From: Capsulimonadaceae bacterium
GTDB taxonomy: Bacteria > Armatimonadota > Armatimonadia > Armatimonadales > Capsulimonadaceae
Reading direction: 5' to 3'
Assembly: GCA_965215505.1 (NCBI GenBank)
Contig: OZ244065.1
Location: 4,192,001 to 4,256,000 of the forward strand
DNA: 64,000 bases
How positions within the stretch are numbered: position 1 is the stretch's first letter; each line of letters begins with the position of its first letter. Both the position numbers and the translations under genes were made by a program. Shown here one piece after another: positions 26,176 to 60,462 of this stretch. The notes under the pieces are model-generated. The model saw nothing but the letters and a program-made list of their open reading frames with translations, was not told where the DNA came from and searched no databases.

Positions 26176-26700
26176 TCAGGCCTCGGTGTCTTGCTCGGCC
26201 TCGGTGTTTCGCTCGGAATCGGAAGAGCCTCCCGCACGGCGCAGGCTCTCTGCGCGGGCAGATCGCTCGCGGCCGCGCAAGACCTCGCGGATGTCGTCCT
26301 CACCGAAGTCGAAGCGCCAGCCGCTTGCGTCGGCCAGGTAGCTGAAGCGGTGGTGCCGCTCATCGTCACGGAATAGTACAACGCCGGTATTCGGCACCTC
26401 CACCGCGATAACGTAGCCCTGCGGCGTCTCGACTTCCATGCTCTGGTGGCCGCCGGCCAGCGACACGTCATAGAAGGTGCCGGCCCGCCGCCGCCGCTCG
26501 CTTTCCAGGAGCGTGCGTACGAGCGCGCTTGCCCCCTCGGGCTGCGAGAGCGCCCAGTGCCACAGATCGTCCGGCATGGACACGGGGTGCTGCCCCAGAG
26601 GGACCGGATGAGAGGGTCGCCCCCGCCGCTTTGCTTTTTCTGGCTGCTCGGCCTCAGTCGTCTTCTCACCAGGCTTACCAGGCGCGTCAGTGTCTGACAT
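26176..26700 (-). CDS. Hypothetical protein with AT-hook-like KRRGRP and a ribbon-helix-helix-like N-terminal region
   Basis: GGGAGG RBS upstream. VSMPDDLWHWALSQPEGASALVRTLLE fits the RHH pattern. Confidence 0.55.
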   Translation of the reverse strand: MSDTDAPGKPGEKTTEAEQPEKAKRRGRPSHPVPLGQHPVSMPDDLWHWALSQPEGASALVRTLLESERRRRAGTFYDVSLAGGHQSMEVETPQGYVIAVEVPNTGVVLFRDDERHHRFSYLADASGWRFDFGEDDIREVLRGRERSARAESLRRAGGSSDSERNTEAEQDTEA

Positions 26701-27345: not shown

Positions 27346-28983
27346 ATGAAAGTCGAACCCATGAAGATCAAAGGCGCGATCCTCTACACCCGTGTGAGTA
27401 CCGGCGACCAAGACAAGAACGGGACGAGCCCGGAGACTCAGCTCGCCTCTTGCCGGGACAAGGCCCTGACCCTGAGCCTGCCCATTATCGCTGAGTATCA
27501 CGACGGCGGCATCAGTGGGGGCTACCTGCTGACGCGCCCCGGGATGCAGACCGCCCTCGCCGACATCCTGGCGGGGCGGGCCGACACGCTCATCTGTGCC
27601 AACATCAGCCGCTACAGCCGCGACGTGGAACACCAGCAGGCCATCAAGAAGGCCGTCCGTGCCGCCGGAGGCCGCATCGTCTTCTGCGACATGGACTTCG
27701 ACGACACGCCCGAAGGGAACCTGGCCCTCGGCATCATGGGCGGCTTCGCGCAGTACGAGAGGGCCGTCATCAAGGACCGGACCATGAAGGGCAAGCGCAA
27801 GCGGGCGGAGGAGGGGCAGCAGCCCCAGCACAGCACCCCGGCCTACGGCTACCACATCGTCACCAACGCCCAGGTGGAATGCGGCCTCTACCCGCCCGAG
27901 ATGCGGGGGCGTTACGTCGTCATTGAAGAGGAGGCCGCGGTCGTGCGGGAGCTGTTCGCCGCCTACGCCGCCGGGGGCGTCGGATGCGCGCCGCTCGCCC
28001 AGCGGCTGAACGCCCGGCGCGTCCCCGCCTCACGGGGCGGCCTCCGGCACCCCGTCTGCGTGTCCATCATCCTCCGGAACCCCGTCTACAAAGGACAGCC
28101 CGCCTACGGGCGCGTCGCCCGCGCCCTCGGCGAGCCGGGGCCGGACGACCGCAACCAGCTGACCGGGCGGCCCCTGCTGCGCCCCCGCGCCGTCGAAACG
28201 CCGGGCAAGCAGCCCGTCGCCCTGTCGGCTCCCCCGCTCGTTTCGGCGGAGCTGTGGGAAGCGGCGCAGGCCCGGCTCGCCGAAAACCGGGGGCGGCTCG
28301 TCGGCAGCCTCAAACAGGCACGGATGCTCACCGGCCGGGTGGAATGCCCCTGCGGCCACCGCGCCGCCATCGTCGGCGGCCGGGGCAAGAAAGCCTACCA
28401 ATGCTTCGCCGAACAGCAGAGCCGGTTCTTGCGCGGGACCTCGGCTTGCAGCGCCGCCACCTATTCCCTGCCCCGGACGGAGCAGAGCGTCATCCGCTCC
28501 CTCCAGAACGCCGCCGAACATCCCGAAGCCATCGCCGCCGCCGTGCAGGCCTATCAGTAGCCGGAAGCCGGCACGCAAAACAACGCGGACGCCGCCGACC
28601 TGCGCCGGGAACTCGCCGCCATGGACGCCGCCGCCGCCCAGATCAAGCAGGAAGAGGCCGCCGCCGTGCAGGCGCAGATCTCCGGGATTTAGGCCGGAGC
28701 CAGCCCGGACGCTTACGCCGCCGTGTTCGCCGGCCTCGCCGCCCGCCGCAAAGGCCTGGAAGACCGGCGCAGGACTGTCGCGCGGAGCCTGGGAACCCAA
28801 AGCCAGAAAAAAGGCGGGCTGACGATATCAGCCCGCCGGGACGATGCCGGACTGGCCCAACAGGCCCTCCGGGACATGGCCCGCGTCCTCTCGTCCGACG
28901 CCGTGCCCGGACGGGAGAAGCGCGACCTCGTCGGCCGCATCATCGCCCGGGTCGTGTGCCGGCCGGACGGGGCCGACGTCTAA
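27346..28983 (+). pseudogene. Large serine recombinase (resolvase, recombinase, Zn-ribbon and coiled-coil domains) with in-frame stops
   Basis: YTRVST catalytic Ser, SRYSR, AYGY, ILRNPVYKG, PPLVSAELWE.AQ and LTGRVECPCG. The coiled-coil continues in frame past TAG 28558-28560 and TAG 28690-28692 to EKRDLVGRIIARVV. Confidence 0.85.
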
Positions 28984-32923: not shown

Positions 32924-34030
32924 TCAAGGTTTCACGATCCTTCGCAGCAGCGACGCCCAATGGACGCCGTAAAGGGTGAGGAACGTCAGCGCATAGTGCG
33001 CGGCGTTGCCGGCCGTCGGGCGGGGCTGGCCCGGCGTCCACTGTGTCGGGCGTGGGACTTCCGGCGGGTCGAACCGGTCAAAGTAGTGATGGCTGATGAG
33101 CCATTGGCGCGACGGGAAGACGATGCGCCACAGGGCATGGGCGCGGGCCTGGGGGCTTCCGAGCAGGTGCCAGAGCAGCGGGAGACGCAGGCGCTCGGTC
33201 CGGGCGGCGGCGACGTCCTCGATGCTGTCGGCGGCGCGCGCCTCGCTGATCCGCTCCAGGCGAGCGCGCCCGGCGCGTGGCGCGAGCGAATCCAGAACTT
33301 CGAGCGGGACGGGCGTTCCCAACAGCCGCGCCGCCGCGAACAGGGCGGCGAAGCAGGCCGTGGATGCCCCCGCCGATCCGGCGATGCGGACGAACAGCGG
33401 CCAGTCCACTGTGCTGACCGAGCAGACCTGTGCGATGTCGCGCAAGGACTGCGAGGCGGCCAGGGAGTGCCCCGCTAGGTGCAGGCAGAGGTGAAGTATC
33501 TGGTCTTCCGTCCCGAGTACCCGCCCGTCCGTTCCCGCCAGACGCGCCGGCCGGGCGCGGTCCCACAGGCCCGCGTCATCAACGTGGAACTTGCCGAAGA
33601 AGAGGTCGTTATTGATCAGCTCGGTGTGCAGCTCGACCACTATAGGGCCACGCTCCGTGTGGTTGAAAAAGTTGGCCTGACAGTCGCGGCCCCGGATGAC
33701 CTCCTCCCATTGCAGGGGATCAACGACATACCCCAGCGAATCCAGCAGCGTCCGGGCGCGGGCGGCGTCTTCTGGGCGCACCAGCACGTCCAGGTCTCCG
33801 AACCGGCGCAGGCTGGGGCGCGGGTAGACCGTCTCGGCCAGCGCCGCCCCCTTGAGGACGAGCAGGTCCAGTTTTGCCTCGGTGCAGAGACTCAGCAGAG
33901 CGGCCAGGTGCGGGCGGAAGAAAGCGAACTGGACGAGGGCCGCGACTTCCTCCAGCGCCTCTCCTTCGGGGAGGCGCTGGGCGAAGGGAAACTCCGTTCC
34001 TGTTTGGCTTGCATCAAGGGTGAGAAACAT
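32924..34030 (-). CDS. Nucleotidyltransferase family protein (type found in lasso-peptide/PqqD neighbourhoods)
   Basis: LKGAALAETVYP....R.FGDLDVLV, VELH, HLCLH and LRDI. Start position uncertain. Confidence 0.85.
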   Translation of the reverse strand: MFLTLDASQTGTEFPFAQRLPEGEALEEVAALVQFAFFRPHLAALLSLCTEAKLDLLVLKGAALAETVYPRPSLRRFGDLDVLVRPEDAARARTLLDSLGYVVDPLQWEEVIRGRDCQANFFNHTERGPIVVELHTELINNDLFFGKFHVDDAGLWDRARPARLAGTDGRVLGTEDQILHLCLHLAGHSLAASQSLRDIAQVCSVSTVDWPLFVRIAGSAGASTACFAALFAAARLLGTPVPLEVLDSLAPRAGRARLERISEARAADSIEDVAAARTERLRLPLLWHLLGSPQARAHALWRIVFPSRQWLISHHYFDRFDPPEVPRPTQWTPGQPRPTAGNAAHYALTFLTLYGVHWASLLRRIVKP

Positions 34031-34045
34031 AAAAACCCGAGAAGG

Positions 34046-34085
34046 CCCGCCGACCTTCCCCGAAAGATGAGGAAAGTCGGCAGGC
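34046..34085 (-). terminator. Stem-loop between the 34152-34916 gene and the nucleotidyltransferase
   Basis: Imperfect inverted repeat CCCGCCGACCTT...AAGTCGGCAGG, followed on the minus strand by a pyrimidine/T-rich tract. Confidence 0.4.
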
Positions 34086-34151
34086 CGCCGATTTGCGCTC
34101 CTTAGGTGAGTGCAAAAGCCTGGTTCCCGCGAACCACTTCAGCCCTGTCCT

Positions 34152-34916
34152 CTACCTGCCGGTCCGATCCACGCATTTGCCGCGCGGGCCTGGGAGGAAG
34201 CCGGCGCAGCAGGGGAGCGAGTTGTTGATGTAATTGTAGGTCTGCCCATGCGCGGCACAGGGGAGGGACACACTCGCCGGACCGACATAGAAATCGTTGC
34301 TGTTGATCCCCGTCGCCGGTGAAGAAGTGCTGCTGATGGTGGCCCGCGTGATTAGGTTGTTCACGTTCGTCTGCGCCCCGACAAAAACTGCGGTCCCGGC
34401 GGATGAGGTGTTGTCCGTCGGCCCGAAGGTGAAACTGCCTAGCGAGGTGTTCCCGTTGAAGACGGTCAGCGTGAAGGTTTCCGTGTCCGCATTGAAGTCC
34501 TGGGCGAATAGCCCGAACCCGGTGACACCGTTCTGGAAGCTGATCTGGAGAGGCCCCGTGGCCGTGGGGCTGACGGAGCCGTTGAAGAGTTCTTCCAACA
34601 CGTTCCCCGACCCGAACTGCGGGCCGACCGTCAAGTCAGAGGTGTAGCTCTGAAACCCGCCGCCCGGTGTACCGTTCGTTGCCGAATAGGTCAGGGTGTT
34701 GGTGCCCGCTGTCACTGTGAACGAGGACGGTCCGCTCGCGCCGCTCCCGGAGGTAGTGGGGTAGGGGGCCGTCTGGACAGGGCTGAACAATTGGCTTGGG
34801 CTGGTCACTATCGTGGCCTGCCCCTGTACCGCACGCCAGCCCAGGGTCGCGAAGGTGCAGAGCGCGAGCGCAGTCCATAAGGAGCTGTTGAGGCGGTTTT
34901 TGTGATGGTTGTTCAT
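34152..34916 (-). CDS. Secreted beta-rich protein (paralogue of the PEP-CTERM protein at 35877-36704) ending in a 4-Cys tail instead of an anchor
   Basis: Signal peptide. Shares GPLQI.F.NGV..FGLF.Q, FVGAQ, NLITR and DFY.GP with the PEP-CTERM protein. Tail is CAAHGQT...PCC.G..PGPRGKCVDRTGR. Confidence 0.8.
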   Translation of the reverse strand: MNNHHKNRLNSSLWTALALCTFATLGWRAVQGQATIVTSPSQLFSPVQTAPYPTTSGSGASGPSSFTVTAGTNTLTYSATNGTPGGGFQSYTSDLTVGPQFGSGNVLEELFNGSVSPTATGPLQISFQNGVTGFGLFAQDFNADTETFTLTVFNGNTSLGSFTFGPTDNTSSAGTAVFVGAQTNVNNLITRATISSTSSPATGINSNDFYVGPASVSLPCAAHGQTYNYINNSLPCCAGFLPGPRGKCVDRTGR

Positions 34917-35242
34917 GGTAATCCTTTCGAGCCAGTGCTGTTGCCTCCACTCAAGCTCCTTCGTCTCGTTTCAGTGCCGGGCTTCCACCCCGCCGTTGTC
35001 TCGCTGCCCAATCAGGACTTCATAACTTTCCTGCCATTGTACCCGATTCGTTCGCGATTTTTCTTTCACTACGCGGCGGACCCAGCCAGACGGAGGAAGA
35101 CTGAATCCGGAGGAAGATTGAGTCAGGAGGAAAACTAAATCAGGAGGAATGCGTCATGCAGGCAGGTGACGGAGTAGTAACCAGAGGCGGCCTGCCGCTT
35201 GCTCCCGGAGGCAGGGCAAATGCAACAGGCCGTCAGAACTTG

Positions 35243-35279
35243 AAAAGCCGGGGCGGCATCCCGTAAAACCGCCCCCGGC
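35243..35279 (-). terminator. Rho-independent terminator after the PqqD-fusion gene
   Basis: Minus strand reads GCCGGGGGCGG-loop-CCGCCCCGGC followed by TTTT. Confidence 0.55.
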
Positions 35280-35327
35280 AGATATGCCTCGGGAGTATGC
35301 TTACATGGCTCGGGAGTATGCTTGGGG

Positions 35328-35843
35328 TCAGCGTCCAGTCCGGTCAACACATTTGCCGCGTGGTCCGGGGGAATATCCTGAGCAGCAGGGACGTATGGTG
35401 CCTGTTGCCAGGCCGGTGTAGTCAAAGGTCTGCCCGTGTCCAGCACATCTAGTAGACGCCGCCATCGCGGGCGTCGGGGCGACCATGCTCTGGACCACCG
35501 GCAAGAGGAGGGACACACCGCCGACCAAGGCCGCCTTCTGAAGTACCTGTCTTCGCGTGACTCGTCTGGCCTCTTCCGCTCGTACCAGCGGGATTTGCAG
35601 CAGGTGTTCTTTTCCCAAACGGTCCAGCGCAAGCCAGACCATGTCCTCGGTCACCGGTGTTGCCATCTCGCCTTGCAGGGTTTCCACAAGAGCGGCCACC
35701 GTATGCCGGCCATCGCAGTGACGCCAGACCATCGCAGCGGTCCGGTTCAGACGGTGAACATGGTCACGCTGCTCATCATAAATGATGGTTTCATCACCGA
35801 TCTCCTGGACGACAAGGCGGTCCGCTCGTGCTTGTGGTTTCAT
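35328..35843 (-). CDS. PqqD/RRE-domain protein fused to an internal Tat signal and a Cys-rich C-terminal peptide (putative RiPP precursor-RRE fusion)
   Basis: Residues 1-85 show a PqqD fold (E.IIYD....H.LN.TAA.VW..CDG..TV). TRRQVL at 96-101 is followed by a hydrophobic stretch and AMA-AS, then a ~42-aa 4-Cys peptide. Confidence 0.8.
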   Translation of the reverse strand: MKPQARADRLVVQEIGDETIIYDEQRDHVHRLNRTAAMVWRHCDGRHTVAALVETLQGEMATPVTEDMVWLALDRLGKEHLLQIPLVRAEEARRVTRRQVLQKAALVGGVSLLLPVVQSMVAPTPAMAASTRCAGHGQTFDYTGLATGTIRPCCSGYSPGPRGKCVDRTGR

Positions 35844-35876
35844 TGCTTTCCTATCTCAGCACTTTCCAAATGTCGG

Positions 35877-36704
35877 CTAGCCGGCGGCCTTCTGCGCGGA
35901 CTGTCGGCCGGCGTTCACCTTACGCCGGCGCGCGGAAAGGACGACGCCGGCGAACAGCAGCGTTCCCATGCCGAAGCCCACGACGGTCGAAGCCTCCGGG
36001 ACTGGAGCCGTGAACTGGTAGCTGATGGGGCCGAAGTAGAAGTCGCCTGTCGCGGTGGTGTTGGACATGTCCGTCAGGACGACCCTGGTGATCAGGTTCC
36101 CCGCCAGGGCTTGGGCGCCGACGAACGTCGCGTTGCCCCCTTGAGTCGGCCCGGAACCGGACGTGTTGAGTACGTCCAGAGTAGAGAAACTGCCGAGTGG
36201 GATGGTGCCGTTGGGGCCGCCAAAGACGGAAAAGTTGAAGTGGTATGTGTCTGTACCAGCGGACTGTCCGAAAAGGCCGAATTCATTGACGCCATTGCTG
36301 AAGTCAATCTGGAGAGGCCCAGTCGGAGGCGCGGTCGCTTTAGACGTGTTAAAGTCGAAGGTTTCGATCAGATGTGTCGCGTAAGGAAAAGCATTCGTGT
36401 CGAGCGCCGGCAGGTTCGTGATCGGGTTGGGTTGGTTGACGAAGGTGTCGAAGGCGGTGGCACTCGCCGGCTCAGTCTGCGATGTGAACGTCACCCCCGT
36501 TCCGGGAGAATTCAGCAAGTAGCCAGAAGGGAGCGTCCCGTTGGTGGTGTCAAACTGCGGCGTCATGCTCGCCCCCGGCCCCAGCTGGGATGGCATCGTG
36601 AGCTGGGTCGCCAGTTGTGCCTGGGCCGCCCGTCCGCCTAGGGCTGTGAGGGCGCAGAGCGTGACGGCGGCGGCGAGTTGCTTGCTGTGATCGTATTTGT
36701 GCAT
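35877..36704 (-). CDS. PEP-CTERM sorting-domain surface protein
   Basis: Signal peptide ending AQA; C-terminal PVPEAST, TM helix and ARRRK. Confidence 0.88.
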   Translation of the reverse strand: MHKYDHSKQLAAAVTLCALTALGGRAAQAQLATQLTMPSQLGPGASMTPQFDTTNGTLPSGYLLNSPGTGVTFTSQTEPASATAFDTFVNQPNPITNLPALDTNAFPYATHLIETFDFNTSKATAPPTGPLQIDFSNGVNEFGLFGQSAGTDTYHFNFSVFGGPNGTIPLGSFSTLDVLNTSGSGPTQGGNATFVGAQALAGNLITRVVLTDMSNTTATGDFYFGPISYQFTAPVPEASTVVGFGMGTLLFAGVVLSARRRKVNAGRQSAQKAAG

Positions 36705-36901
36705 GGTAGTTTCTTTCAAAAGTCTTTATGGTCTACGCCCACGCCTCCAGGGGCGCGAGTGGCTGCGGGTAAACCCATGCACCATCGGCTGCACGGGTGA
36801 GAAAACGGGCAGCGCCCGAAAACTGTTATCGCTTGGGAAGCCTTCTTCACAGGTTTCGTTGCGCGGCGTCGCGGGATGTCCCCGAACGTGGGCAAAATTC
36901 T

Positions 36902-37828
36902 TTAGCGCTCTGGCCCGTCCCCGCCGGCCTCTTCCCCACATAAGCGTTCCCGCAGCCAGGCGACAACCCGGTCGGCCTCGCCCCGCTTGCTCTGGAACGC
37001 CTCGGCACCGAGGGCCGCTCTCTGAAGAATCTGCATCGCCGCCTGCGGCTGCCGGCGGACCTGGACGGTGTTGTCCAGCAGTGTCAGCATCGCCCGGCCC
37101 GGCGATTGGGGCCGGGGCCGCCAGCGCGCGCCCGCCTCGTACCGGGCCGCGAGGATCATCCCGACCGGCAGCGGCCCGGTCGCGGCCCGCCCGCCCAATG
37201 CCTCGACGGGGACCGTCTCGCCCGGCCCGCCTTCCGCGTCCCGGAGTGACAGGGGCCGGGCGTAAGGGTGGACATGGCCGCCCTCGTCGAAGACCGCATA
37301 CTCGTCGGAGAAGTATGTCGCCCCCGCCGCCGCCAGGGCCGCCACCAGGCTACTCTTCCCGCTGAAGGTACGCCCCGGAATGACCACGGCTTTCCCGCCC
37401 CACCCGACGACGCCGGCGTGGACGAAGAGACGGTCCCGCGCCTGCTCCGCCACCTGCCCGTGCAGGCCGGAGGTCAGCGCCTGGATGGCCTCGTCCGCCC
37501 TGCGCGTGTGCGCCACCCGGCAGGTCCCCCGGTACAAAAAATAGTGCGGCTCGGGATGCGCCCGCGACCGGCTCTCCACCACGGCCAGCGAGAACAGGCC
37601 GTCCACGGTCGGTGTGGGGGCAGGCTCCGCGCCGGGCGGCAGGTGATCCGTCAGACGATCGAGCAGCGCGGCGTCCGTGGCGCGGACGCCGATCCGGGCA
37701 CCGTGACTGACGAAGGCCAGCCCGGCCGCCCAGCGGAACCTCTCCAGAGCCTTCCAGCAGGGGGAGGAAGCGTCGGGCGGCTGTTCCAGCGTCGGCAGCC
37801 GCGCCCCATCTCTTTGCTCGACCGTCAC
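36902..37828 (-). CDS. HprK-related P-loop Ser/Thr kinase
   Basis: FVHAGVV, Walker A GRTFSGKSS, YFSDEYA and PY.RPL. Confidence 0.85.
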   Translation of the reverse strand: MTVEQRDGARLPTLEQPPDASSPCWKALERFRWAAGLAFVSHGARIGVRATDAALLDRLTDHLPPGAEPAPTPTVDGLFSLAVVESRSRAHPEPHYFLYRGTCRVAHTRRADEAIQALTSGLHGQVAEQARDRLFVHAGVVGWGGKAVVIPGRTFSGKSSLVAALAAAGATYFSDEYAVFDEGGHVHPYARPLSLRDAEGGPGETVPVEALGGRAATGPLPVGMILAARYEAGARWRPRPQSPGRAMLTLLDNTVQVRRQPQAAMQILQRAALGAEAFQSKRGEADRVVAWLRERLCGEEAGGDGPER

Positions 37829-49411: not shown

Positions 49412-50682
49412 ACAGTTGACGCCAAAACAGGATCAAGACCGACAGGGCTTGGGCTTCCCGTTCGTCGGCTCGGCAATAGAACGCCAACCGTCAGCAGGAT
49501 GTAGTCGAGCAGTAAACACAGCGCTTTGAAGTAGGGGGGGTGGAGCCTACCAAAATGATGCAGGACAAGGTCAACGACGTTGTGGGTGTTGCTGCCGATC
49601 GAAGCCAGGGTGACTACCAGGAAAATGGCGAACAATATCCTATACCCTGTCAACTGACGCCTCGCCAGGAAACTCAAAACGAGGACCATGCTGGGCGCAA
49701 GTAAAACCGTGTCATACGTCCGATGATAGAATACGAGCAGCGCCAAGAGCGACAAGGCGCTGATATCGGCCAAACCAAATTGACTCTGCTGCCAACGCCA
49801 CAGAAAGCCGAGGATGAGAACAACGCAGATGGCTGTTTTTACTATCTCAGCGACAACAGGATTGCCTATGTCTGCAATCAAGCATTCAACATCAACACGC
49901 TCTCTGCGTCCCGTGCCATGAACATCATTTTGCGTTCCAGAGGAAAACGACGCCTTGTTGTTTCGCTGATAACTTGATAGAAACTGCCGAGGCCCGATCA
50001 GGGCGGCACCGATGATGTTGACGCCTACATACAGCAGTACGCCGGACGCTATCAGAACCTTGGTCTGTTTTGTGCCCTTGATGAACAGATACAAAAACAA
50101 AGGCAGGCAGAGCGTAAATTTGATGAGAGCGAGTAGCGATGTGAGTGGGCTGAGATGCGGCCTGTCGGACTGCAACAATCTCGCTGTCAGCAAAGTCAGC
50201 GCGATGATAGGTAAAACGATCTGCCCCAAAGAGAATGTTTGCCAAGTCCCCGGCAGAACAGCGATACACAGCGAACTAACCCAGAGCAGCCATAGCGGAG
50301 GCTCGGCGTAGACGTATTTCAGGCAAAGACAAGCGATGAACGGGATGCAGAACGCGCCCGTAATAATCTGGCACCAGCAAAAGACCGGCCACGGCAGTAA
50401 GCTCCATGGGGACAAAAGGACCAACGTTGCGGGTAAATGAATCTGAGGGGATGGAGAGGCTTGTCTTGTGGTTATAAAGTGTGCATATCCTTTTGCCAGC
50501 GATGTATGGTCATAAGGATTTTGGCCTACACGAAACAGCCGGGACCCGACGTAAAGTTGTTGACCATCGCTGTAGAGTGGCCGGATGTCATGGGTGCGGG
50601 TGTGAACGCCAGGCAACAGGAAGCCGAAGACGATACTTAAGAGAATGCCGATGTACACAACGGTCAGCTTAGTTGTCTTCAT
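49408..50682 (-). CDS. GT87-like (DUF2029) polytopic glycosyltransferase
   Basis: GQNPY, P..L...P...LP, GQ, K.T, YH..YD and many TM segments. Confidence 0.65.
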   Translation of the reverse strand: MKTTKLTVVYIGILLSIVFGFLLPGVHTRTHDIRPLYSDGQQLYVGSRLFRVGQNPYDHTSLAKGYAHFITTRQASPSPQIHLPATLVLLSPWSLLPWPVFCWCQIITGAFCIPFIACLCLKYVYAEPPLWLLWVSSLCIAVLPGTWQTFSLGQIVLPIIALTLLTARLLQSDRPHLSPLTSLLALIKFTLCLPLFLYLFIKGTKQTKVLIASGVLLYVGVNIIGAALIGPRQFLSSYQRNNKASFSSGTQNDVHGTGRRERVDVECLIADIGNPVVAEIVKTAICVVLILGFLWRWQQSQFGLADISALSLLALLVFYHRTYDTVLLAPSMVLVLSFLARRQLTGYRILFAIFLVVTLASIGSNTHNVVDLVLHHFGRLHPPYFKALCLLLDYILLTVGVLLPSRRTGSPSPVGLDPVLASTV

Positions 50683-50714
50683 GTTCCAAGGCCTTGACTA
50701 TCACAAAAAACAAA

Positions 50715-50810
50715 TTACGAGAAGCGCCGGGCCAGCCCCGCGCAGAGGAACTGGTCGCGCCGCCAGACCTCATCCCAGTCTTCCGGGGAGACGAAAATGA
50801 TGTCCGGTAA
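50715..50810 (-). pseudogene. 5' fragment duplicate of the TuaH-like GT gene
   Basis: 50725-50798 matches 49323-49396 at 71 of 74 nt and reads IIFVSPEDWDEVWRRDQFLCAGLARRFS*. Confidence 0.8.
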
Positions 50811-50875
50811 TGCTTGCACTAGAAGTTGTTCTTGATCCTCTAACGTCAACCCTCTGCCGGTCCGAGAGGCGCGAC

Positions 50876-51709
50876 TCAGTCGAAAGTTTTCTTTTGCCTA
50901 AACGAAGAGCCTTCATGAACGAATAAAAAGTCAGATTGCCACAATGCATCGTCCAGCGGTCTGCGAATAAAGGAGCAAATATCATACACGACAAAGCCGC
51001 GTTGTTTCATGAAGTTTAGGACTTCATCTACTAATGGAGCACCTCGATTGACTTCAAGGAGAGCCACTTCCATCAGTATCACCTCGACACCTTGCAAGGT
51101 GTTTTGGCTGCCTCTAAGGATCTCTAGTTCGTATCCTTGAACGTCAAGCTTGAGGAAATCAACCTTGCTTGGGATACGCTCTGCAACAATCTCGTCCAGG
51201 GTTCGCATAGCATAGCGCTTGACTTCACGTTGAATGCTGCTTTGTTCCGGCAGTATCGAAGAGCCGGTTTGAAGCTCAAAGAAAGGAACATCGTCTCGTG
51301 CTTCAGGTCCCAAAAGGCTGATTTTATAATCAACTTCACCGTTGTATTGAGCCGATACTGTCTCCAGGATTTGCTCCTTCGCCGGCTGGGCCTCAATCAT
51401 GAGGACAGCAGCGTCCGGGAATATTCCTTTGACCATTTGAGTCCAAGTTCCTTGAAAAGCACCCACATCTACGATATTGGCTGGCCGGAAACCGAGGGCG
51501 CGGAGCCGGCGCAAACTGACCTCGACGGACGCCATTTCATATCGAACACAGATATCGTCCTTGTGTGAAGCAGACATCGCGGACAGGGACGCGCGGAAAA
51601 GAACATCCTTAGCCCATGATGGCACGATTTTTCCCGTGATATGAGCTATTTTTCGTCTCACTGTGTAGTCCTTATCACCGAACAATTGGCGTTGGGTGTC
51701 CACGCGCAT
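50876..51709 (-). CDS. FkbM-family methyltransferase
   Basis: VDVGAFQG, TLD and FLKLDVQGYELEIL.G. Start uncertain. Confidence 0.88.
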   Translation of the reverse strand: MRVDTQRQLFGDKDYTVRRKIAHITGKIVPSWAKDVLFRASLSAMSASHKDDICVRYEMASVEVSLRRLRALGFRPANIVDVGAFQGTWTQMVKGIFPDAAVLMIEAQPAKEQILETVSAQYNGEVDYKISLLGPEARDDVPFFELQTGSSILPEQSSIQREVKRYAMRTLDEIVAERIPSKVDFLKLDVQGYELEILRGSQNTLQGVEVILMEVALLEVNRGAPLVDEVLNFMKQRGFVVYDICSFIRRPLDDALWQSDFLFVHEGSSFRQKKTFD

Positions 51710-52631
51710 AACGGTAAAGATGCACGGGTATTCGGGCGCAGCCGCTTACGGCTGCGCGGTAGCGCCGGTTAGCAGCATCTTTTTTGGCTGTCAGTAACCG
51801 CTGGCTGATCATGTACATTTGATAGGCTTTCCATCCGCCTCTGGCTTTCTGCTGGTGCTCTTTAGAGTTTTCGGGTGAGAAAAAGGCTTTACAACGCACC
51901 CGCCAGGCTTGTTCCGCAATTCCGGGCATCGCGCCGAGGTTGGACGAATGGCGTCTGTAGAGCATTATGACCCGGTTGATGAACTGCAAGTCGCCGAACC
52001 GGCTCAGGCGAATCAGCATGTCCCAATCTTCCGGGCCACGGAATGTTTCATCAAACGGCCCGGCCTTCTCGTAGAACTCTTTGCGGGTCAGGATCAGGCC
52101 GGGCGGGAACAGCACGTTGCCGTTCACCAGCACGTCAAAACTTGTCGGCTGTGCTAGGTCCCATTCGACAAGCCTTTTGCCGTCGAAGCCCAGACGCTGC
52201 CTGCCCCGGTCGGCGTACTCGCCCGGATTGACCGGCCGCCCGTTCTCATCTATGTAGTCCGCCAGGCCATGCGCCCCGATGAACTGCGGATTGTTTTCTA
52301 GTTCTGTTCTGAGGGTGCTGAGGGCGTCCGGCAGGTAGACATCATCGCTGTCCATAAAGGTGACATACTTTGATGAGGGATGACGTTCTCGAAATCCATG
52401 ATTACGGGCTGCGGAAGGGCCTCCATTGGGCTGTCGAAACAGGCGGATACGCGGGTCGCGATTGACATAGGCCTCTGCGACTGCGGCCGTGCCGTCCTTC
52501 GAGCCATCGTCAACGATGACGCATTCCCAGTCAGTCACCGTCTGGCTGAGAATGCTGTCTAAAGTCGCCGGCAGGAACCGCTCGCAGTTGTAGGCCGGCA
52601 TGATGATACTGATGGAGGGAGCCTGCATCAA
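51675..52631 (-). CDS. Glycosyltransferase family 2
   Basis: SIIMPAYN, DDGS.D, FMDSDD and EDWD. Confidence 0.9.
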   Translation of the reverse strand: MMQAPSISIIMPAYNCERFLPATLDSILSQTVTDWECVIVDDGSKDGTAAVAEAYVNRDPRIRLFRQPNGGPSAARNHGFRERHPSSKYVTFMDSDDVYLPDALSTLRTELENNPQFIGAHGLADYIDENGRPVNPGEYADRGRQRLGFDGKRLVEWDLAQPTSFDVLVNGNVLFPPGLILTRKEFYEKAGPFDETFRGPEDWDMLIRLSRFGDLQFINRVIMLYRRHSSNLGAMPGIAEQAWRVRCKAFFSPENSKEHQQKARGGWKAYQMYMISQRLLTAKKDAANRRYRAAVSGCARIPVHLYRYARGHPTPIVR

Positions 52632-55703: not shown

Positions 55704-56650
55704 GTCAGGACGGCCTCCTGGACGCCGTCAATCCCCGCCATGATGCGCGCGAATGCTTCCCTGTCACTGATCTGACGTAAGGGCCTTTCCGCCGCGCGCC
55801 GTGTCTGCATCTGGTGCCTCCGCCCCCAGGCGGCTGCGAACCCTTTCAGGAACGGCGCGTCTCCCTTTGCCGCCGCCCGCGCCAGGCGGAACGGCAGCCA
55901 GGCCAGGTGCTCGCGCCGCATCTGCGGGTCGTCGATGTTCTTCCACTGGAGCAGGAACGTGTTCTGGTCCACGATGGCTCTAAGCTGCTTCTTCTTGTAG
56001 GCCGCGCCGGACGTCTGCCCCCCCAGGTGGTACAGCACGCTGCGCGGCTCATAGAGGATGCGCCAGCCGCGCCGCCAGGCGCGGTAGGATAAATCAATAT
56101 CCTCGTGGTAAAGCGGCCAGAATAACTCATCAAAGCCGCCGAGTTCGAGGTACTTGGACCGCGAGAACGCCGCCTGACCGCCGAGCGCGAAGAAGCAAGT
56201 GGAGGTGCATCCAATGTCGGGGAGCTGGTTGTACCACCACAGGCCCCGGTGGAAGCCGCCCGAGGTGCGCGACCCCTGCGGCGTCACGCGGTCGCCGGTC
56301 AGGACGCGCGTGTTGACGGCGAACACGTCCGGCGTGTGCAGGTGTTCCAGCAGCGGCGGCAGGAAATCCGGCTCGACCAGGATGTCGTTGTTGAGCAGCA
56401 GGACCGCCTCGGTGTCCAGGGTCGGCACGATGTCGTTGTAGGTGAACAGGAAGGCGTTGCGCGGAGCGCGGACGTTCCTAACCCACGGGAACTGATGCTC
56501 GGTGTAGGCGATGCTGTCATCCGTGCTGCCGTTGTCAATCAGGTACACGTCATGGTCGTGGCCGTATCGGGTTGCGGCTCCCAAGGTGCTGAAGCACCCT
56601 TCCAGCAGGCGTAGGCCGTTGTAATTAAGAACAAGGAGACTGGAGCGCAT
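55700..56650 (-). CDS. Glycosyltransferase family 2
   Basis: LNYNG, IDNGSTD, LLNND and GGFDE...YHEDIDLSYR. Confidence 0.9.
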   Translation of the reverse strand: MRSSLLVLNYNGLRLLEGCFSTLGAATRYGHDHDVYLIDNGSTDDSIAYTEHQFPWVRNVRAPRNAFLFTYNDIVPTLDTEAVLLLNNDILVEPDFLPPLLEHLHTPDVFAVNTRVLTGDRVTPQGSRTSGGFHRGLWWYNQLPDIGCTSTCFFALGGQAAFSRSKYLELGGFDELFWPLYHEDIDLSYRAWRRGWRILYEPRSVLYHLGGQTSGAAYKKKQLRAIVDQNTFLLQWKNIDDPQMRREHLAWLPFRLARAAAKGDAPFLKGFAAAWGRRHQMQTRRAAERPLRQISDREAFARIMAGIDGVQEAVLT

Positions 56651-56651
56651 T

Positions 56652-57578
56652 CTATATCAAAAAGTTTCGCGTACTTGGCAAAGCGTTGTATAGCCCTATT
56701 TTAGACAAGATTTTGTAGAAATTGATGTTCAGAATTAGTCTTGGATTGAGGCGAATGGCGTCTAAGAACTTCCCATTGCCTTGCAACCCCCGTCGTGCTT
56801 GATTCAGGCGTTCATAGACGATACGGGAGCTATAAACTTGGCGAATGTGCTGCTTACTTTTGGCAATACTGATTCGGCATTGCAAACAGTCCTTGTGGCT
56901 GTGGGAATGTTTTTGAAGTACCTGAAATAATTCCCTCGCGATGCGGAGATGGTTGCGGCTTGTCAAACTGCTGTCATGCACACGATAGCAGGAAAGTACT
57001 TCAGGGATAACAGCCACTTCGTTGTGCAGCGAAATTCGCAGCCACAAATCCCAATCTTCCCCGGTCCGCAATTGGGTGTCAAAAGGGCTGACTTTAGGCA
57101 AGGCATTCCGGCGAACCACAGCAGTGAGTGTGCCAACAGTGCAGTGTTCAAGAAGGCTATGAAAGACGTAGCCTTCTGTATGAAAGCGCTTTTCTTGTAG
57201 GTTGCCGTCACTATCTACCCAGACATGATAGGAGTGAACTAAGCCTACCTTTGGATTTGTGAAGGCTGGGATTTGGCGTTCCAATTTGTTTGGCAGCCAA
57301 TAATCGTCAGCGTCTAGGAACGCAAGGTATTCACCTGTCGAAGCGGCAATTGCTGCATTACGGGCGGCTGAGACTCCACTGTTTTTCTGACGGATGAAGG
57401 TGATTCGAATGCCGTAGCGCTCGGCGACGGTACAAGAGGCATCAGTTGAGCCATCATCTACGACTATAATCTCTACGTTAGAGTAAGTCTGTGCAAGAAC
57501 ACTCTCTATAGCCTGAGATAAGTAGGCTTCGGCGTTGTAGCAGGGAATAATGACGCTGACCTTTGAAGGAATAAACAT
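56652..57578 (-). CDS. Glycosyltransferase family 2
   Basis: VSVIIPCYN, DDGSTD, FLDADD and EDWDLW. Confidence 0.92.
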   Translation of the reverse strand: MFIPSKVSVIIPCYNAEAYLSQAIESVLAQTYSNVEIIVVDDGSTDASCTVAERYGIRITFIRQKNSGVSAARNAAIAASTGEYLAFLDADDYWLPNKLERQIPAFTNPKVGLVHSYHVWVDSDGNLQEKRFHTEGYVFHSLLEHCTVGTLTAVVRRNALPKVSPFDTQLRTGEDWDLWLRISLHNEVAVIPEVLSCYRVHDSSLTSRNHLRIARELFQVLQKHSHSHKDCLQCRISIAKSKQHIRQVYSSRIVYERLNQARRGLQGNGKFLDAIRLNPRLILNINFYKILSKIGLYNALPSTRNFLI

Positions 57579-57615
57579 CGTCGTACTCGATAGTATGTTG
57601 AGAACAAGAATAATT

Positions 57616-58554
57616 CTAACTACTCTTACTTTTGATTAGATCAGCCTTCTGATAATATCTTGGTCGCCTTCTCTCAATGAGCCACTGTTTGTGAAAATTA
57701 ATTTCTTGTACCAGTTCCATTTCCCACAGAGGCATCCCTTCTCTTGAACATTCTTGCGCCTTTACAGCACGCAAAAAGACTAACTGAATGATATGTTTGA
57801 GCAGGCGCACATAGCAAAAAGAATTATGGGAGTGATAATAATGATGAGCGACATAGGCGCTTACTCTTCCGAACTTCTCTGCGGTGGTAATAAACCCTGC
57901 ACGCGACAATCTCGACGCATCGCAATGATGCACGACCACGGTTTCTAGCGCAGCTCTGAGTCTATATCCTGCATCAAACAGCTCCCAGGTAAACAATGTT
58001 TCATCGCCAAAGCCCATCGCTCCTGGTCCCAATTCAACATTGAACTGGGGTACTTTAGTCAACACTTTCCGCGAGAACGCCATATTTGCACCCACCATAC
58101 GATTGGGTTTGTCCGCATCTAGGCCTTCGGTACTTGCTAACCAGTTCCGATGAAGTGTCTTCATCCACGGGCGCTCTAAGTGCGTTGCGAGCCTTACCCC
58201 GCCTGCCATAGCCTCCGCCTCATCCCGCAAAATTGGCCCGCACATTCCCTCGATCCAATTCTTCGGAGGCCGCACATCGTCATCGGTGAACAGAAACACC
58301 TCGCCCTGGGCCGCCGCCATCCCTGCGTTGTACGCATAGCCCTTGCCCTGCCGGGGTTCATGGATGTAGCGTACCGACATATTCGGCAGATGACAGGACG
58401 CGACAACTTCGGCAGTCGCGTCGGTGGAAGCATTATCCACTACCAACAGTTCGGTGGGCATTTGCTTTGGAACATGGAGTTGGGCAATCGCCGCCAGCGT
58501 CTGCTGTAGGTCATTAGCGCGATTACAGGTGCAGAGAATGATTGAGACAATCAC
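57616..58554 (-). CDS. Glycosyltransferase family 2
   Basis: SIILCT.NR, DNASTD, FTDDD and GANMAF. Confidence 0.9.
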   Translation of the reverse strand: MIVSIILCTCNRANDLQQTLAAIAQLHVPKQMPTELLVVDNASTDATAEVVASCHLPNMSVRYIHEPRQGKGYAYNAGMAAAQGEVFLFTDDDVRPPKNWIEGMCGPILRDEAEAMAGGVRLATHLERPWMKTLHRNWLASTEGLDADKPNRMVGANMAFSRKVLTKVPQFNVELGPGAMGFGDETLFTWELFDAGYRLRAALETVVVHHCDASRLSRAGFITTAEKFGRVSAYVAHHYYHSHNSFCYVRLLKHIIQLVFLRAVKAQECSREGMPLWEMELVQEINFHKQWLIERRRPRYYQKADLIKSKSS

Positions 58555-58557
58555 GGT

Positions 58558-59526
58558 TCATCTTTTTCCAGTCAAAATCGGTTTCATTGCTTGGCAAGCG
58601 GGCCTTGCCCATTTTGGAAGAACCTGAGACCGGCCTGTTGTATGATCTAATATAAGACGCGCTCGTTTTCTTGGTCTCTGTGCCTGGTATTTTTCTTCAT
58701 TCGCTTCTATTTCGCGCGAAATCATGTTGAACAAGTTATGATCGTTCAGCACGCGCCGCCTTGCTTCAGCGATGGCATCCATGTTACGCTCTCGTAAATC
58801 ACTGTTGATAACACCACGCAAAAAAGCAGTCGGGTTGGATGTTTCAGGGTCTAGCTGTATGTAGGAATTCTTTGGAAAGAAGCGATCTAATTCAGTACAG
58901 CCATAATAGATAGGCATTGTCCAAGCAAGGAAGCAATCCATGACCTTTTCACTCCAATAGTGACTATTGGAGTAGTTCTCAAAGGCAATGGAATAGCGGT
59001 ATGGTGCTAACCCCTCCCATTTGCCAGCTATCGGGGTATATCCACGGCCATAAAGGTCCAGTTCAGCCATTCCCCGAACTTTGTCTAGGAAAGTCAAACG
59101 GTATTTATGTCCAGTGAATAGTGAATTGTTACTTGTCACCCAGGAAAGGGGATGGGTTTTTTCGCAGGGGGGGCAGGTGCTGAGATAATCGTAGTCTTGA
59201 TCAACCCACCACGGTAGGTATGAGTAACTCAGGATGTGCTTATCACTCACTCTTCCCGAATCGGTCATGTAAGCCCGATCAATGTTTCCCCAAATTTTAT
59301 GCCAAGGTTCAGCGAGTTCATGTGGAGCCTCGCCCATCACAAGCCAAATATGCCCTTTGGGACACCTGACCCATGATGGCTTTTTTACATGACCATGAAC
59401 AACCACATAATCTGCTTCACCGGGTTCATCAATGATGAAGCGAATGCCGTTCCATATACCTTTGCCGCCTGGCGTCTGGCGAAAAAGATCCGGGTATTTC
59501 CAATATTTAAGAATCCGTACTAGCAT
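58558..59526 (-). CDS. GT10-family (alpha-1,3/4-fucosyltransferase-like) glycosyltransferase
   Basis: YRYSIAFEN....YWSEK..D......PIYYG. Confidence 0.85.
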   Translation of the reverse strand: MLVRILKYWKYPDLFRQTPGGKGIWNGIRFIIDEPGEADYVVVHGHVKKPSWVRCPKGHIWLVMGEAPHELAEPWHKIWGNIDRAYMTDSGRVSDKHILSYSYLPWWVDQDYDYLSTCPPCEKTHPLSWVTSNNSLFTGHKYRLTFLDKVRGMAELDLYGRGYTPIAGKWEGLAPYRYSIAFENYSNSHYWSEKVMDCFLAWTMPIYYGCTELDRFFPKNSYIQLDPETSNPTAFLRGVINSDLRERNMDAIAEARRRVLNDHNLFNMISREIEANEEKYQAQRPRKRARLILDHTTGRSQVLPKWARPACQAMKPILTGKR

Positions 59527-59585
59527 TGTTGCAGAAAGAAATCACATGCGGCATTGTTATGAAGGGCTATATCCATAATATGTTT

Positions 59586-60431
59586 TCAACCTTTTACACG
59601 TTGAAAGACAGGAAGATTATGAAAAACCCAGCGCTCTATATGCCTTCTAAAACGCCGTGGCCTAATGTTTGCGGAGAGTTTATAAGCTACCCTTAAAAGG
59701 GGGTGACTATAGAGTTGATCTAGTCGTACTTGATATGATTCTTTAGGGTCCAGTAGTTCAGGATGATCCTTATAAAATCTATCCCAATCTGTGCCAAAAT
59801 TAACATCAGTGCCATACTGAAGGGTAAGCCTACCATAATGATGCGCGAAGCTATCTACAAGGATAACTTCCAATCCAAAGTTCTTGAGGTTAAGGCTCGA
59901 CTCTATATCATTGAAGCATCCGCTGTATTTGCTGGATAGACCACCTATTTTCTCGAAAACCGTTCGTGGGAACACATTAAGATTATATGTCATCATGCCA
60001 GGGTAACAGTTATGCCTCACGGCATTACACGATGCCTCTTGTGCTATATAATCACACGATGAAAGGTAAGGGATCAAGCAACCAATTGGCAGATCAGGAT
60101 TGTTCTCTATGAATCTCTTAAATAAGGTGAAGGTGTCGGGGCAAACATAAATATCTGACGCCATAGTGACTACCCAATCTTCCGCTAGGCAGGCTACGCC
60201 ATTGTTGTATGCCTCTGAGAATGATAGGAGTCTCCCATAATGCTTATAAGTGACATCAATATCGCTACAGAACTTATGCAAATCCGCATCGTATTCCGCC
60301 GAACTATCCACGACAACTATTGAAGTTATTTCAACACAATTTTTGAGCAATGCAATAGCTAGTCTTGTTGACTGTCTGACTGAAAGAGGATGCTCCGGCC
60401 TTTGAAAATGATTTATAGCGACGCCAAACAT
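59586..60431 (-). CDS. Glycosyltransferase family 2-like
   Basis: VVVDSS, FSEAYN.G, SD and FEKIGG.....F.D. Confidence 0.7.
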   Translation of the reverse strand: MFGVAINHFQRPEHPLSVRQSTRLAIALLKNCVEITSIVVVDSSAEYDADLHKFCSDIDVTYKHYGRLLSFSEAYNNGVACLAEDWVVTMASDIYVCPDTFTLFKRFIENNPDLPIGCLIPYLSSCDYIAQEASCNAVRHNCYPGMMTYNLNVFPRTVFEKIGGLSSKYSGCFNDIESSLNLKNFGLEVILVDSFAHHYGRLTLQYGTDVNFGTDWDRFYKDHPELLDPKESYQVRLDQLYSHPLLRVAYKLSANIRPRRFRRHIERWVFHNLPVFQRVKG

Positions 60432-60462
60432 TAAAAAGCCTTTTTGACAAAGAAATGAAAAC

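Follow-up and report, generated by a model that had tools for sequence, protein, structure and literature searches.

The DNA analysed here is a stretch of 64,000 nucleotides (nts) from a Capsulimonadaceae bacterium of the Armatimonadota (contig OZ244065.1, positions 4,192,001 to 4,256,000 of the forward strand), hereafter called the window, and the subject of this study is a single open reading frame (ORF) in it, located at 35328..35843 on the minus strand (35843→35328) and encoding 171 residues plus a stop in the ORF list. Translation of the same interval on the plus strand was ruled out by an internal stop. The ATG has a purine-rich stretch directly upstream and lies 33 nts past the stop of the preceding gene. 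Alignment with full-length relatives divides the whole ORF into a PqqD-type RiPP recognition element (RRE; RiPP, a peptide made by the ribosome and modified after translation), an internal signal resembling those used in twin-arginine translocation (Tat), and a Cys-rich tail. The PqqD/RRE domain occupies residues 1-85 (35589..35843, minus strand as for all the following parts) and is connected by a poorly conserved linker, residues 86-95 (35559..35588), to the twin-arginine motif T-R-R-Q-V-L-Q-K at residues 96-103 (35535..35558), which was delimited by conservation and by the Tat-signal model TIGR01409. Residues 104-128 (35460..35534) contain a hydrophobic region and an A-x-A site (P115, S119 and A122-P-T-P-A-M-A128), and the remaining 43 residues, 129-171 (35331..35459), form a tail with four Cys (C…CC…C) that is predicted to fold as a small hairpin domain of the disulfide type. 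The residue numbering in an earlier note on this DNA, T96-R97-R98-Q-V-L for 96-101 and A122-P-T-P-A-M-A128 for the putative cleavage region, was exact, and the hydrophobic run itself covers residues 104-117, just after the RR motif.

In the order of the minus strand, the target is preceded by genes for an HprK-like kinase and a PEP-CTERM protein and is followed by genes for a 254-residue secreted paralogue of the latter and for a protein of the NTP_transf_5 family. Past this five-gene run lie genes for Wzy_C and for glycosyltransferases of families 4 and 2 (GT4 and GT2). The third-position GC content of the target ORF is 0.63, compared with 0.77-0.87 in its four neighbours, and the GC content of the 2-kb bin around it (34001-36000) is 0.607, compared with 0.66-0.705 on both sides.

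The Pfam model PF05402 (PqqD) matches residues 18-63 with 38.3 bits (gathering score 23.4, E 1.8e-9) and also matches all 146 of the relatives scanned, which by sequence places the target in the PqqD/RRE family. A word-indexed search found 185 full-length relatives at E ≤ 1e-3, and among the 120 relatives listed nearly all are 160-180 residues long and cover 90-100% of the query. An exhaustive search of 1.84 billion representatives matched 6162 of them at E ≤ 1e-3, of which 3267 have E ≤ 1e-10. The best 150 of the 6162 matches all extend through the signal segment, reaching query residue 124 or beyond, and the lengths among these 150 range from 105 to 470 residues. The layout is thus well beyond what chance would give. 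The databases label the relatives only as 'hypothetical' or 'PqqD family', and in the ESM Atlas only unnamed PqqD clusters were found. We describe a family that is large, unnamed and distributed over several phyla, and that may make secreted knottin-like peptides.

The conservation of each part was determined using an alignment of the query with 267 fetched sequences (268 in total), and also among 147 representatives of separate 50%-identity clusters. R97 is present in every sequence (268/268) and R98 in all but two (266/268); among the cluster representatives the figures are 147/147 and 145/147, respectively. The surrounding positions in the 268 sequences are also strongly constrained: Ser or Thr precedes the Arg pair in 261 (position 96), Lys, Arg or Gln stands at 102-103, and P115, S/T119 and P123 are kept in 263, 264 and 259, followed by A126 (236), A128 (251) and S/T130 (234). 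Among the representatives, A128 is found in 133, A126 in 115 and P123 in 138 of the 147. Mean pairwise identity of the representatives is 0.48 in the RRE, 0.16 in the linker, 0.46 in the signal and 0.16 in the tail. The signal segment thus equals the folded domain in conservation, an unusual property in a signal peptide.

An alignment of this kind had been set beforehand in the earlier note, which expected a conserved RRE and RR signal together with a hypervariable core, and the identities of 0.48, 0.46 and 0.16 follow this expectation. Loss of the RR motif among homologues, which the note had named as a refuting outcome, did not arise. The note's interpretation as a self-chaperoning precursor, in which the RRE might gate export, is partly supported. 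As for the core, its hypervariability was confirmed across the wider family but does not extend to the window's own clade, where the tail is conserved and the four Cys are invariant in 17/17 aligned tails. The family as a whole shows the RiPP-like pattern of a conserved leader and a hypervariable core. The same pattern was seen between copies in one genome region: 13 extra family copies occur within the 78 loci described below, and heads were more alike than tails in 12 of the 13 tandem or nearby pairs, of which one (L069) was mis-parsed. The likeness of head and tail was, for example, 1.00 and 0.47 in L043, 0.93-0.95 and 0.71-0.79 in L025, and 0.72 and 0.19 in L044; the exception was L067 (0.88 and 0.96), and the values were close in L075 (0.69 and 0.63).

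Inspection of residues 96-103 indicates that T-R-R-Q-V-L-Q-K follows the pattern S/T-R-R-x-hydrophobic-hydrophobic-K ahead of a hydrophobic stretch, and the motif of the family can be written as [ST]-R-R-x-hydrophobic-hydrophobic-[RK]-[KR]. For comparison, the Tat consensus is given as S/T-R-R-x-F-L-K in the abstract of PMC3383694. Judged from the alignment, the invariance of both Arg exceeds the need of the positive-inside rule, and the A-x-A motif with Pro at -4 and -6 argues for a signal-peptidase site rather than a plain membrane anchor. The RR motif is not N-terminal, since it begins at residue 96 behind a folded domain, and the earlier note regarded this placement as atypical. The placement is indeed rare, but it has a precedent. 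A 2026 review lists five classes of Tat substrates and, in its section on them, describes internal Tat signals as exceptional and limited to classes IV and V, of which class V, for example FecR, has an internal and non-cleaved Tat signal behind a folded cis-side domain (PMC13673990). The layout of the target is therefore rare rather than unheard of. According to the same section, Tat tolerates small unfolded hydrophilic substrates (PMC13673990). TatC was found in the window's genome and in 5/5 other complete genomes carrying the family, which is weak evidence because it was also found in 11 of 14 control genomes. The signal region of one of the family profiles (A2) aligned with the N-terminus of nitrous-oxide reductase, which is a Tat substrate, although not significantly (E 0.27).

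The fold of the N-terminal part was examined using an AlphaFold2 (AF2) model of the full-length protein built with 146 sequences. Its mean predicted local distance difference test (pLDDT) score is 83.7, and in blocks of 10 residues the score is 88-94 over residues 1-80 and 80 for 81-90. The model has three strands (10-15, 18-23 and 28-32) followed by three helices (34-41, 49-59 and 66-78). A helix is predicted over the RR motif (97-107) and a strand at 117-121 (block pLDDT 78), and the tail blocks score 76-91. The best Foldseek matches in the PDB are lasso-peptide B1 RREs, TbiB1 and TfuB1, solved with leader peptides (5v1u, 5v1v and 6jx3), with template modelling (TM) scores on the target of 0.71-0.75, root-mean-square deviations (rmsd) of 2.6-3.2 Å and E of 1.4e-3 to 5e-2; for TbiB1 (5v1v_A) the values are 0.73, 2.6 Å and 1.6e-3 over 88 columns. 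The family profile matched PqqD (3g2b) weakly, at E 0.033. When the tail was modelled alone, it kept its own strands without residues 117-121, so the partner of that strand in the full-length model would most likely be the edge of the RRE sheet.

Over the 268 sequences, the median tail is 38 residues long and Cys makes up 10.4% of the tails; 220 tails have an even number of Cys, 15 an odd number and 33 none. A similar distribution was observed among the 147 representatives, with an even number above zero in 103, an odd number in 13 and none in 31; their tail lengths are below 15 residues in 12, 15-60 in 84, 61-120 in 39 and above 120 in 12. The mostly even counts suggest disulfides, and hence an oxidising, extracytoplasmic destination. 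With its four Cys, the tail in the window falls short of a six-Cys knottin, and in relatives the corresponding C-C-CC-C-C spacing is frequent but not general: 56 tails were parsed from the loci, 40 of them have at least six Cys and 33 of these 40 have the spacing, whereas the 268 sequences include 111 tails with six or more Cys, of which only 17 show it. A few relatives gave weak matches to the Pfam families Conotoxin, Toxin_29 and Tachystatin (Conotoxin at E 2.3e-5 in one member).

The AF2 model of the tail alone (pLDDT 81.2) contains a small hairpin at 29-31/36-39. Foldseek with this model returned nothing at E ≤ 1e-3 and all rows had E ≥ 0.7; the top rows, all with weak scores, were protoxin-1, GxTX-1E, LaIT1, U1-liotoxin and asteropsins, and the look-alikes are almost all cystine-knot peptides of spiders, scorpions, cone snails and sponges. 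LaIT1 and U1-liotoxin are peptides of the disulfide-directed hairpin (DDH) type. A VIA-align comparison with 48,161 chains gave 33 rows with Z ≥ 2, mostly knottin-type toxins or small disulfide-rich peptides, the best being purotoxin-1 (Z 3.3, rmsd 1.5 Å, 30 aligned) and J-atracotoxin (Z 3.3, rmsd 1.6 Å, 32 aligned). These matches amount to a weak likeness of a predicted fold and imply neither homology nor toxin function.

We next consider the two enzymes that accompany the fusion gene. The kinase gene (36902..37828, minus strand, 308 residues), the first of the trio, encodes an HprK-like P-loop protein that matches TIGR04352 at E 3.2e-20 and has a Walker A motif, and the last of the trio (32924..34030, minus strand, 368 residues) encodes a protein of nucleotidyltransferase fold that matches PF14907 (NTP_transf_5) at E 2.1e-38 and has a G-D-x-D motif. 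In a scan of one genome per species, 297 relatives were confirmed and 78 loci were kept, comprising by label 17 of Armatimonadota type, 11 of Gemmatimonadota type, 41 of Acidobacteriota type and nine others. The last group includes Methylomirabilota, Rokuibacteriota, Binatia and Nitrospinota, a gamma- and a deltaproteobacterial metagenome-assembled genome (MAG), 'Candidatus Onstottus arcticum', a Janthinobacterium MAG and an unclassified MAG. In 52 of 70 loci whose flank is long enough, the kinase is encoded upstream on the same strand, and in 49 of 70 NTP_transf_5 is encoded downstream on the same strand. The complete order kinase, fusion, NTP_transf_5 was found in 41 of the 63 loci with both flanks, in several phyla, the labels including Armatimonadota, Gemmatimonadota, Acidobacteriota and others. 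Walker A is present in 54/57 kinase ORFs and G-[DS]-x-D in 50/59 transferase ORFs. In one metagenomic protein of 470 residues (P0171), a kinase with 48% identity to that of the window (E 1e-70) is fused ahead of the PqqD-RR-signal unit, and the tail is rich in Gly, Asn and Pro and has no Cys. As a single record, P0171 might have arisen in assembly; a genuine fusion would tie the kinase to the protein's cytoplasmic side. Compared with solved structures by sequence, the kinase gave nothing useful (P-loop GTPases at E ≥ 0.16) and NTP_transf_5 gave no match.

We consider the chances evenly balanced that the protein is a precursor that keeps its RRE in the cytoplasm and has its tail exported and probably released by cleavage. 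The RRE, with its PqqD fold, would fold and remain in the cytoplasm, where the kinase and NTP_transf_5, both presumably cytoplasmic enzymes that use nucleotides, would act on or with the precursor before export. One likely role of the RRE would be to serve as the docking site for these two enzymes. A second role, alone or jointly with the first, could be to bind the conserved signal segment of the same protein, in the manner of Tat signal-peptide chaperones, and to hold the signal until TatC is engaged. Because the tails vary and the enzymes are conserved, a common site of modification should lie in the conserved part, where S/T119, T124 and S/T130 are the candidates, residue 130 being the second residue of the peptide that would be released. 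By analogy with lasso-peptide tailoring, the kinase might phosphorylate a Ser and the transferase might add a sugar or a nucleotide: in the lasso clusters described in part of PMC8498205, an HPr-kinase homologue phosphorylates a precursor Ser and a nucleotidyltransferase adds hexose to the phosphate. The RR signal would then engage TatC as a hairpin, the tail would cross to the periplasmic side, signal peptidase would cut after A-x-A at A128, and disulfides would form outside. What the data show is the layout of domains, the extent to which it is conserved, the order of the genes and the folds as predicted; topology, Tat use, cleavage, modification and the part played by the RRE are inferred. 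In its fullest form the proposal is a new, widespread class of ribosomal, secreted, knottin-like peptides, in which the precursor's own RRE is a built-in 'Tat proofreading' chaperone that holds the internal Tat signal and recruits the kinase and NTP_transf_5 to mark a conserved Ser or Thr beside the cleavage site before release to TatC, export, cleavage and disulfide formation outside, with the tails used in competition or at the cell surface; taken with all of these steps, this seems to us unlikely.

The contact between the RRE and the signal segment was modelled by predicting a complex of residues 1-92 with residues 93-171. The score was 0.37, compared with 0.01 for the best control, and was rated as 'weak support', although it sits in a range where predictions are graded as wrong more often than not, except for a guess that was likely from the outset. 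The runs share at least 77% of contacts and the partner has a pLDDT of at least 54. Among 80 solved complexes 58 came up to the mark, as did 2 of 110 mismatched pairs; at scores of 0.60 or below it was reached by only 7 of the 80 solved complexes and by both of the passing mismatches. The model thus lends weak support to the notion that the RRE contacts its own signal segment like a bound leader. Since RRE-leader complexes have already been solved, however, the pass may reflect mere likeness.

The grading of this score and the fact that the two chains are halves of one polypeptide weigh against the precursor interpretation, and so do several other observations. TIGR01409 matches residues 95-122 with 16.5 bits, just below its cut-off of 16.7, and among the relatives it was found at E ≤ 0.1 in only 72/146 (best E 2.2e-5). 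From its sequence, the hydrophobic stretch could be a true membrane helix, insertable by Sec/YidC. The lasso kinases act on a C-terminal Ser in the account given in part of PMC8498205, and a conserved C-terminal Ser is absent from the fusion family. The sole class described with this layout in the review section cited above, class V with FecR, is non-cleaved (PMC13673990). The tails themselves are not uniform: Cys is missing from 31 of the 147 representative tails, while 12 tails fall short of 15 residues and 12 exceed 120. Some family members have long, domain-like tails, such as P0178 (282 residues) and, similarly, P0204, P0243 and P0231. The head is therefore not bound to one kind of cargo. 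Finally, the same tail occurs on the Sec-type companion protein encoded next to the target, which has no RRE, so that an RRE in cis is not a strict requirement for the tail.

The protein could instead be an uncleaved, signal-anchored membrane protein of the FecR type (class V), with the RRE in the cytoplasm, the Tat signal as membrane anchor and the Cys mini-domain displayed in the periplasm, acting as a transmembrane adaptor or regulator for the kinase and transferase and for the surface-polysaccharide and PEP-CTERM genes. We hold this to be possible though doubtful. Class V substrates share exactly this layout and are non-cleaved, as stated in the same part of PMC13673990, and the highest Kyte-Doolittle value over a 19-residue window, 1.89 at residues 104-122, could correspond to a membrane span. 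The neighbourhood is rich in surface-polymer genes, with Wzy_C, GT4 and GT2 in the window and, as recurrent neighbours elsewhere, a tetratricopeptide repeat (TPR) protein in 13 loci, GT4 in 11 and Wzy_C in nine, and the tails of fewer than 15 residues in 12/147 representatives suggest that the head may work alone. Nevertheless, the A-x-A site with Pro at -4 and -6, which would be needless for a plain anchor, is kept (A128 in 133/147, A126 in 115/147), the hypervariable tails and the diverging tails of tandem copies are more in keeping with a released product that evolves fast than with a sensor domain, and Pfam found no FecR-type domain in the target.

The RRE could also work in trans, tethered to the membrane and presenting another peptide or protein, in this clade perhaps the PEP-CTERM protein or a product of a small unannotated ORF, to the kinase and transferase, which would leave the Cys tail incidental. 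The usual partner of an RRE is a separate leader, and the structural matches of the target are complexes of B1 with leaders; in addition, proteins that combine an RRE with a membrane segment and act on other peptides exist, and the daptide intramembrane protease model NF041824 weakly matches 80/146 relatives. The PEP-CTERM gene lies directly upstream in 15 of 16 Armatimonadota-type loci, but it is confined to 16 of the 78 loci whereas the trio spans phyla. A split form of the system was not found either: no proteins of 30-93 residues resembling residues 93-171 were detected, although the search was word-based and this is weak evidence. The C-terminal part of the family itself shows the pattern of a conserved leader and a variable core, and we judge an action in trans to be improbable. 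Only slightly less probable again is an ordinary type II membrane protein inserted by Sec/YidC, with the twin Arg kept for another reason, for example the positive-inside rule or contact with the kinase, and Tat uninvolved. The strong hydrophobicity of the segment, the lack of a basic residue just before A-x-A and the sub-cut-off TIGR01409 score agree with this. Yet the positive-inside rule would accept Lys where R97 and R98 are kept in 268/268 and 266/268, Ser or Thr comes before the pair in 261/268, two hydrophobic residues and Lys or Arg come after it, and the A2 profile gave its weak, non-significant match to the N-terminus of nitrous-oxide reductase (E 0.27).

Returning to the precursor interpretation, we compared the fusion protein with known systems. 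The lasso B1 RREs (TbiB1 and TfuB1) and PqqD have the fold and the Pfam family in common with the target, but they are free-standing proteins of about 85-95 residues with a separate precursor, whereas the RRE of the target is fused to an export signal and a candidate product. The HPr-rel-A system, which consists of a TIGR04352 kinase and a TIGR04353 PqqD chaperone, likewise places an HprK-like kinase beside a PqqD-family protein. TIGR04353 was found at E ≤ 0.1 in 93/146 relatives and is not among the target's own matches at that threshold. The system differs in that the window's kinase scores 72.4 against the 200-bit cut-off of TIGR04352 and matches it only over residues 111-197, and the TIGR04353 model, with 74 positions, covers the PqqD domain only, without signal or tail. 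The window's genome contains nothing that TIGR04353 matches at E ≤ 1e-3, and a match over its 35-bit cut-off was found in 0/61 genomes of the phylum.

The closest parallel for the enzymes is the phosphorylation and glycosylation of lasso peptides, with a kinase for paeninodin and a kinase plus a nucleotidyltransferase for pseudomycoidin, where part of PMC8498205 describes the same enzyme types beside an RRE. That tailoring acts on the C-terminal Ser (PMC8498205, same part), in contrast to the fusion family, which has no lasso machinery and has conserved hydroxyls at 119, 124 and 130. For the layout, the parallel is with class V and FecR, which in the passage of PMC13673990 on that class have the same order of folded cis-side N-domain, internal RR signal and trans-side C-domain; the target resembles them by architecture only. 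The FecR signal is non-cleaved and its domains are unrelated (same passage), while the target has a conserved A-x-A and, in most members, a Cys-rich cargo of 27-60 residues. The likeness to FecR is one of working and not of homology. For the proposed binding of the signal, a further parallel is found in redox enzyme maturation proteins (REMPs) such as TorD, cytoplasmic binders that keep hold of a Tat signal peptide for as long as its cargo is not ready (PMC8428690), and this fits the weak RRE-signal contact in the model. REMPs are separate proteins of another fold that serve cofactor enzymes, whereas the putative binder here is the RRE in cis. The tail model is similar to knottins and two-disulfide DDH peptides of animals, plants and sponges, with weak scores (E ≥ 0.7, Z ≤ 3.3). 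As a further parallel, Halocin C8 is encoded by one gene as a Tat-exported precursor from which a C-terminal Cys-rich peptide is released, and its N-terminal part gives immunity. It is unlike the target in being archaeal, in having an N-terminal Tat signal and no RRE, and in its unrelated sequence.

Each part of the system, that is, the RRE, the Tat signal, the kinase/nucleotidyltransferase pair and cystine-rich mini-proteins, is known, and the combination was not found described. No description of a fusion of an RRE, an internal Tat signal and a Cys tail was found in searches of the literature on PqqD, HPr kinase, knottin, twin-arginine, PEP-CTERM and PF14907, and two RRE-Finder papers have no passage on HPr, nucleotidyltransferase or transmembrane, although their supplements could list the family. 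A 2025 survey of RREs states, in the part that deals with PF05402, that 21% of these proteins exceed a discrete RRE in length while carrying no further annotation, and calls them an opportunity (PMC12710340); its supplements may also list the family. If the precursor interpretation is true, RREs can be built into the substrate itself, which would change genome mining for precursors, and the rare class of internal Tat signals would gain a very large family, possibly the first cleaved one. In that case the hard-to-culture soil phyla Acidobacteriota, Gemmatimonadota and Armatimonadota would encode thousands of diverse knottin-like peptides behind a simple, recognisable leader. In the fullest form of the proposal, judged unlikely above, the hypervariable tails would amount to a large and so far unused store of cystine-rich peptides from bacteria.

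The two remaining genes of the five-gene run are related to each other. The PEP-CTERM protein (35877..36719, minus strand, 280 residues), encoded 33 nts upstream of the target, matches PEP-CTERM models below their cut-offs (E 0.009-0.022). Its family was found in 16 Armatimonadota-type loci, in 15 of which it lies between the kinase and the fusion or upstream of the fusion, and in the 16th (L013) it is merely an overlapping frame bearing the motif; a 'VPEAS…' end is present in 16 of the 27 open frames listed in the cluster. The genome has three exosortase (EpsH) genes, none of them inside the window, so the PEP-CTERM neighbour of the target depends on a distant sortase. The 254-residue companion (34152..34916, minus strand) was identified by its likeness to the PEP-CTERM protein, with which it has 36% identity (E 2e-21), and to the tail of the target. 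It has a Sec-type start and no RRE, and it ends, in place of the PEP-CTERM sorting signal, in a Cys tail (about 34155-34259) that is 62% identical to that of the target (E 3e-15). The arrangement is repeated in another locus (L003:6748-7545). In each case the companion tail is closest to the fusion tail of its own genome, with 24/40 and 23/34 identities compared with 12-17 of 37-41 between genomes. A database search for the companion gave only itself and two close relatives, to which L003 adds one, so that this feature is rare and no common module. The tail is a portable extracytoplasmic module. In the 410-nt gap between the target and the companion, we observed three head-to-tail repeats of 17 nts (82-100% alike) and two repeats of 19 nts placed 21 nts apart (95% alike), at 35091-35141 and 35284-35323, which may be regulatory sites for the companion gene.

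Several other genes recur near the trio. A protein of about 1150 residues with a C-terminal Peptidase_C25 domain and a likeness to PorU far under the NCBIfam cut-offs was found in 16 loci (e.g., L026:1445-4900), nearly all labelled Acidobacteriota, and might serve to process or attach the tails. A 388-residue protein with a weak match to CxxCxxCC/FliB-like proteins (e.g., L030:6633-7799) was found in seven loci, six of them labelled Gemmatimonadota or Longimicrobiales and one (L019) an uncultured bacterium; its gene lies between the fusion and NTP_transf_5 in four of the seven (L025, L030, L043 and L044) and elsewhere in L019, L027 and L075. A lasso-peptide cluster was ruled out, as neither a lasso cyclase (Asn-synthetase-like) nor a B2 protease was found in the 23 ORFs scanned between 20.5 and 49.4 kb or among the recurrent neighbour families of the 78 loci. 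Anti-phage defence was likewise rejected, as PADLOC reported nothing for any of the five genes. The window yielded no matches to Rfam and no tRNAs, and a promoter and terminator scan of 32.8-38.2 kb gave counts like those of shuffles.

Standalone PqqD loci of other Armatimonadota, collected using TIGR04353 (L085-L090), contain an ordinary PqqD-like frame in five of six cases (L085-L088 and L090). In these five, the RR signal and Cys tail were absent in a pattern scan, and in L089 nothing was flagged. One of the five frames adjoins a long Cys-rich frame that by eye resembles a radical-SAM enzyme. Among the loci with the fusion, the one labelled as a Janthinobacterium lividum MAG (L012) has the Armatimonadota-type order including the PEP-CTERM neighbour, and its fusion protein is 58% identical to the query. 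For this reason the label of the bin looks doubtful. Its fusion ORF ends nine residues past A-x-A while the tblastn match continues, which suggests a frameshift. Within the window, a large serine recombinase with Resolvase and Recombinase domains is encoded at 27346-28560 on the plus strand, about 7 kb from the target, with a DUF2239 gene nearby at 26176-26700. Finally, the GC content is 0.47-0.52 at 50001-52000 and 56001-62000, compared with a window mean of 0.63, and these regions may be foreign DNA.

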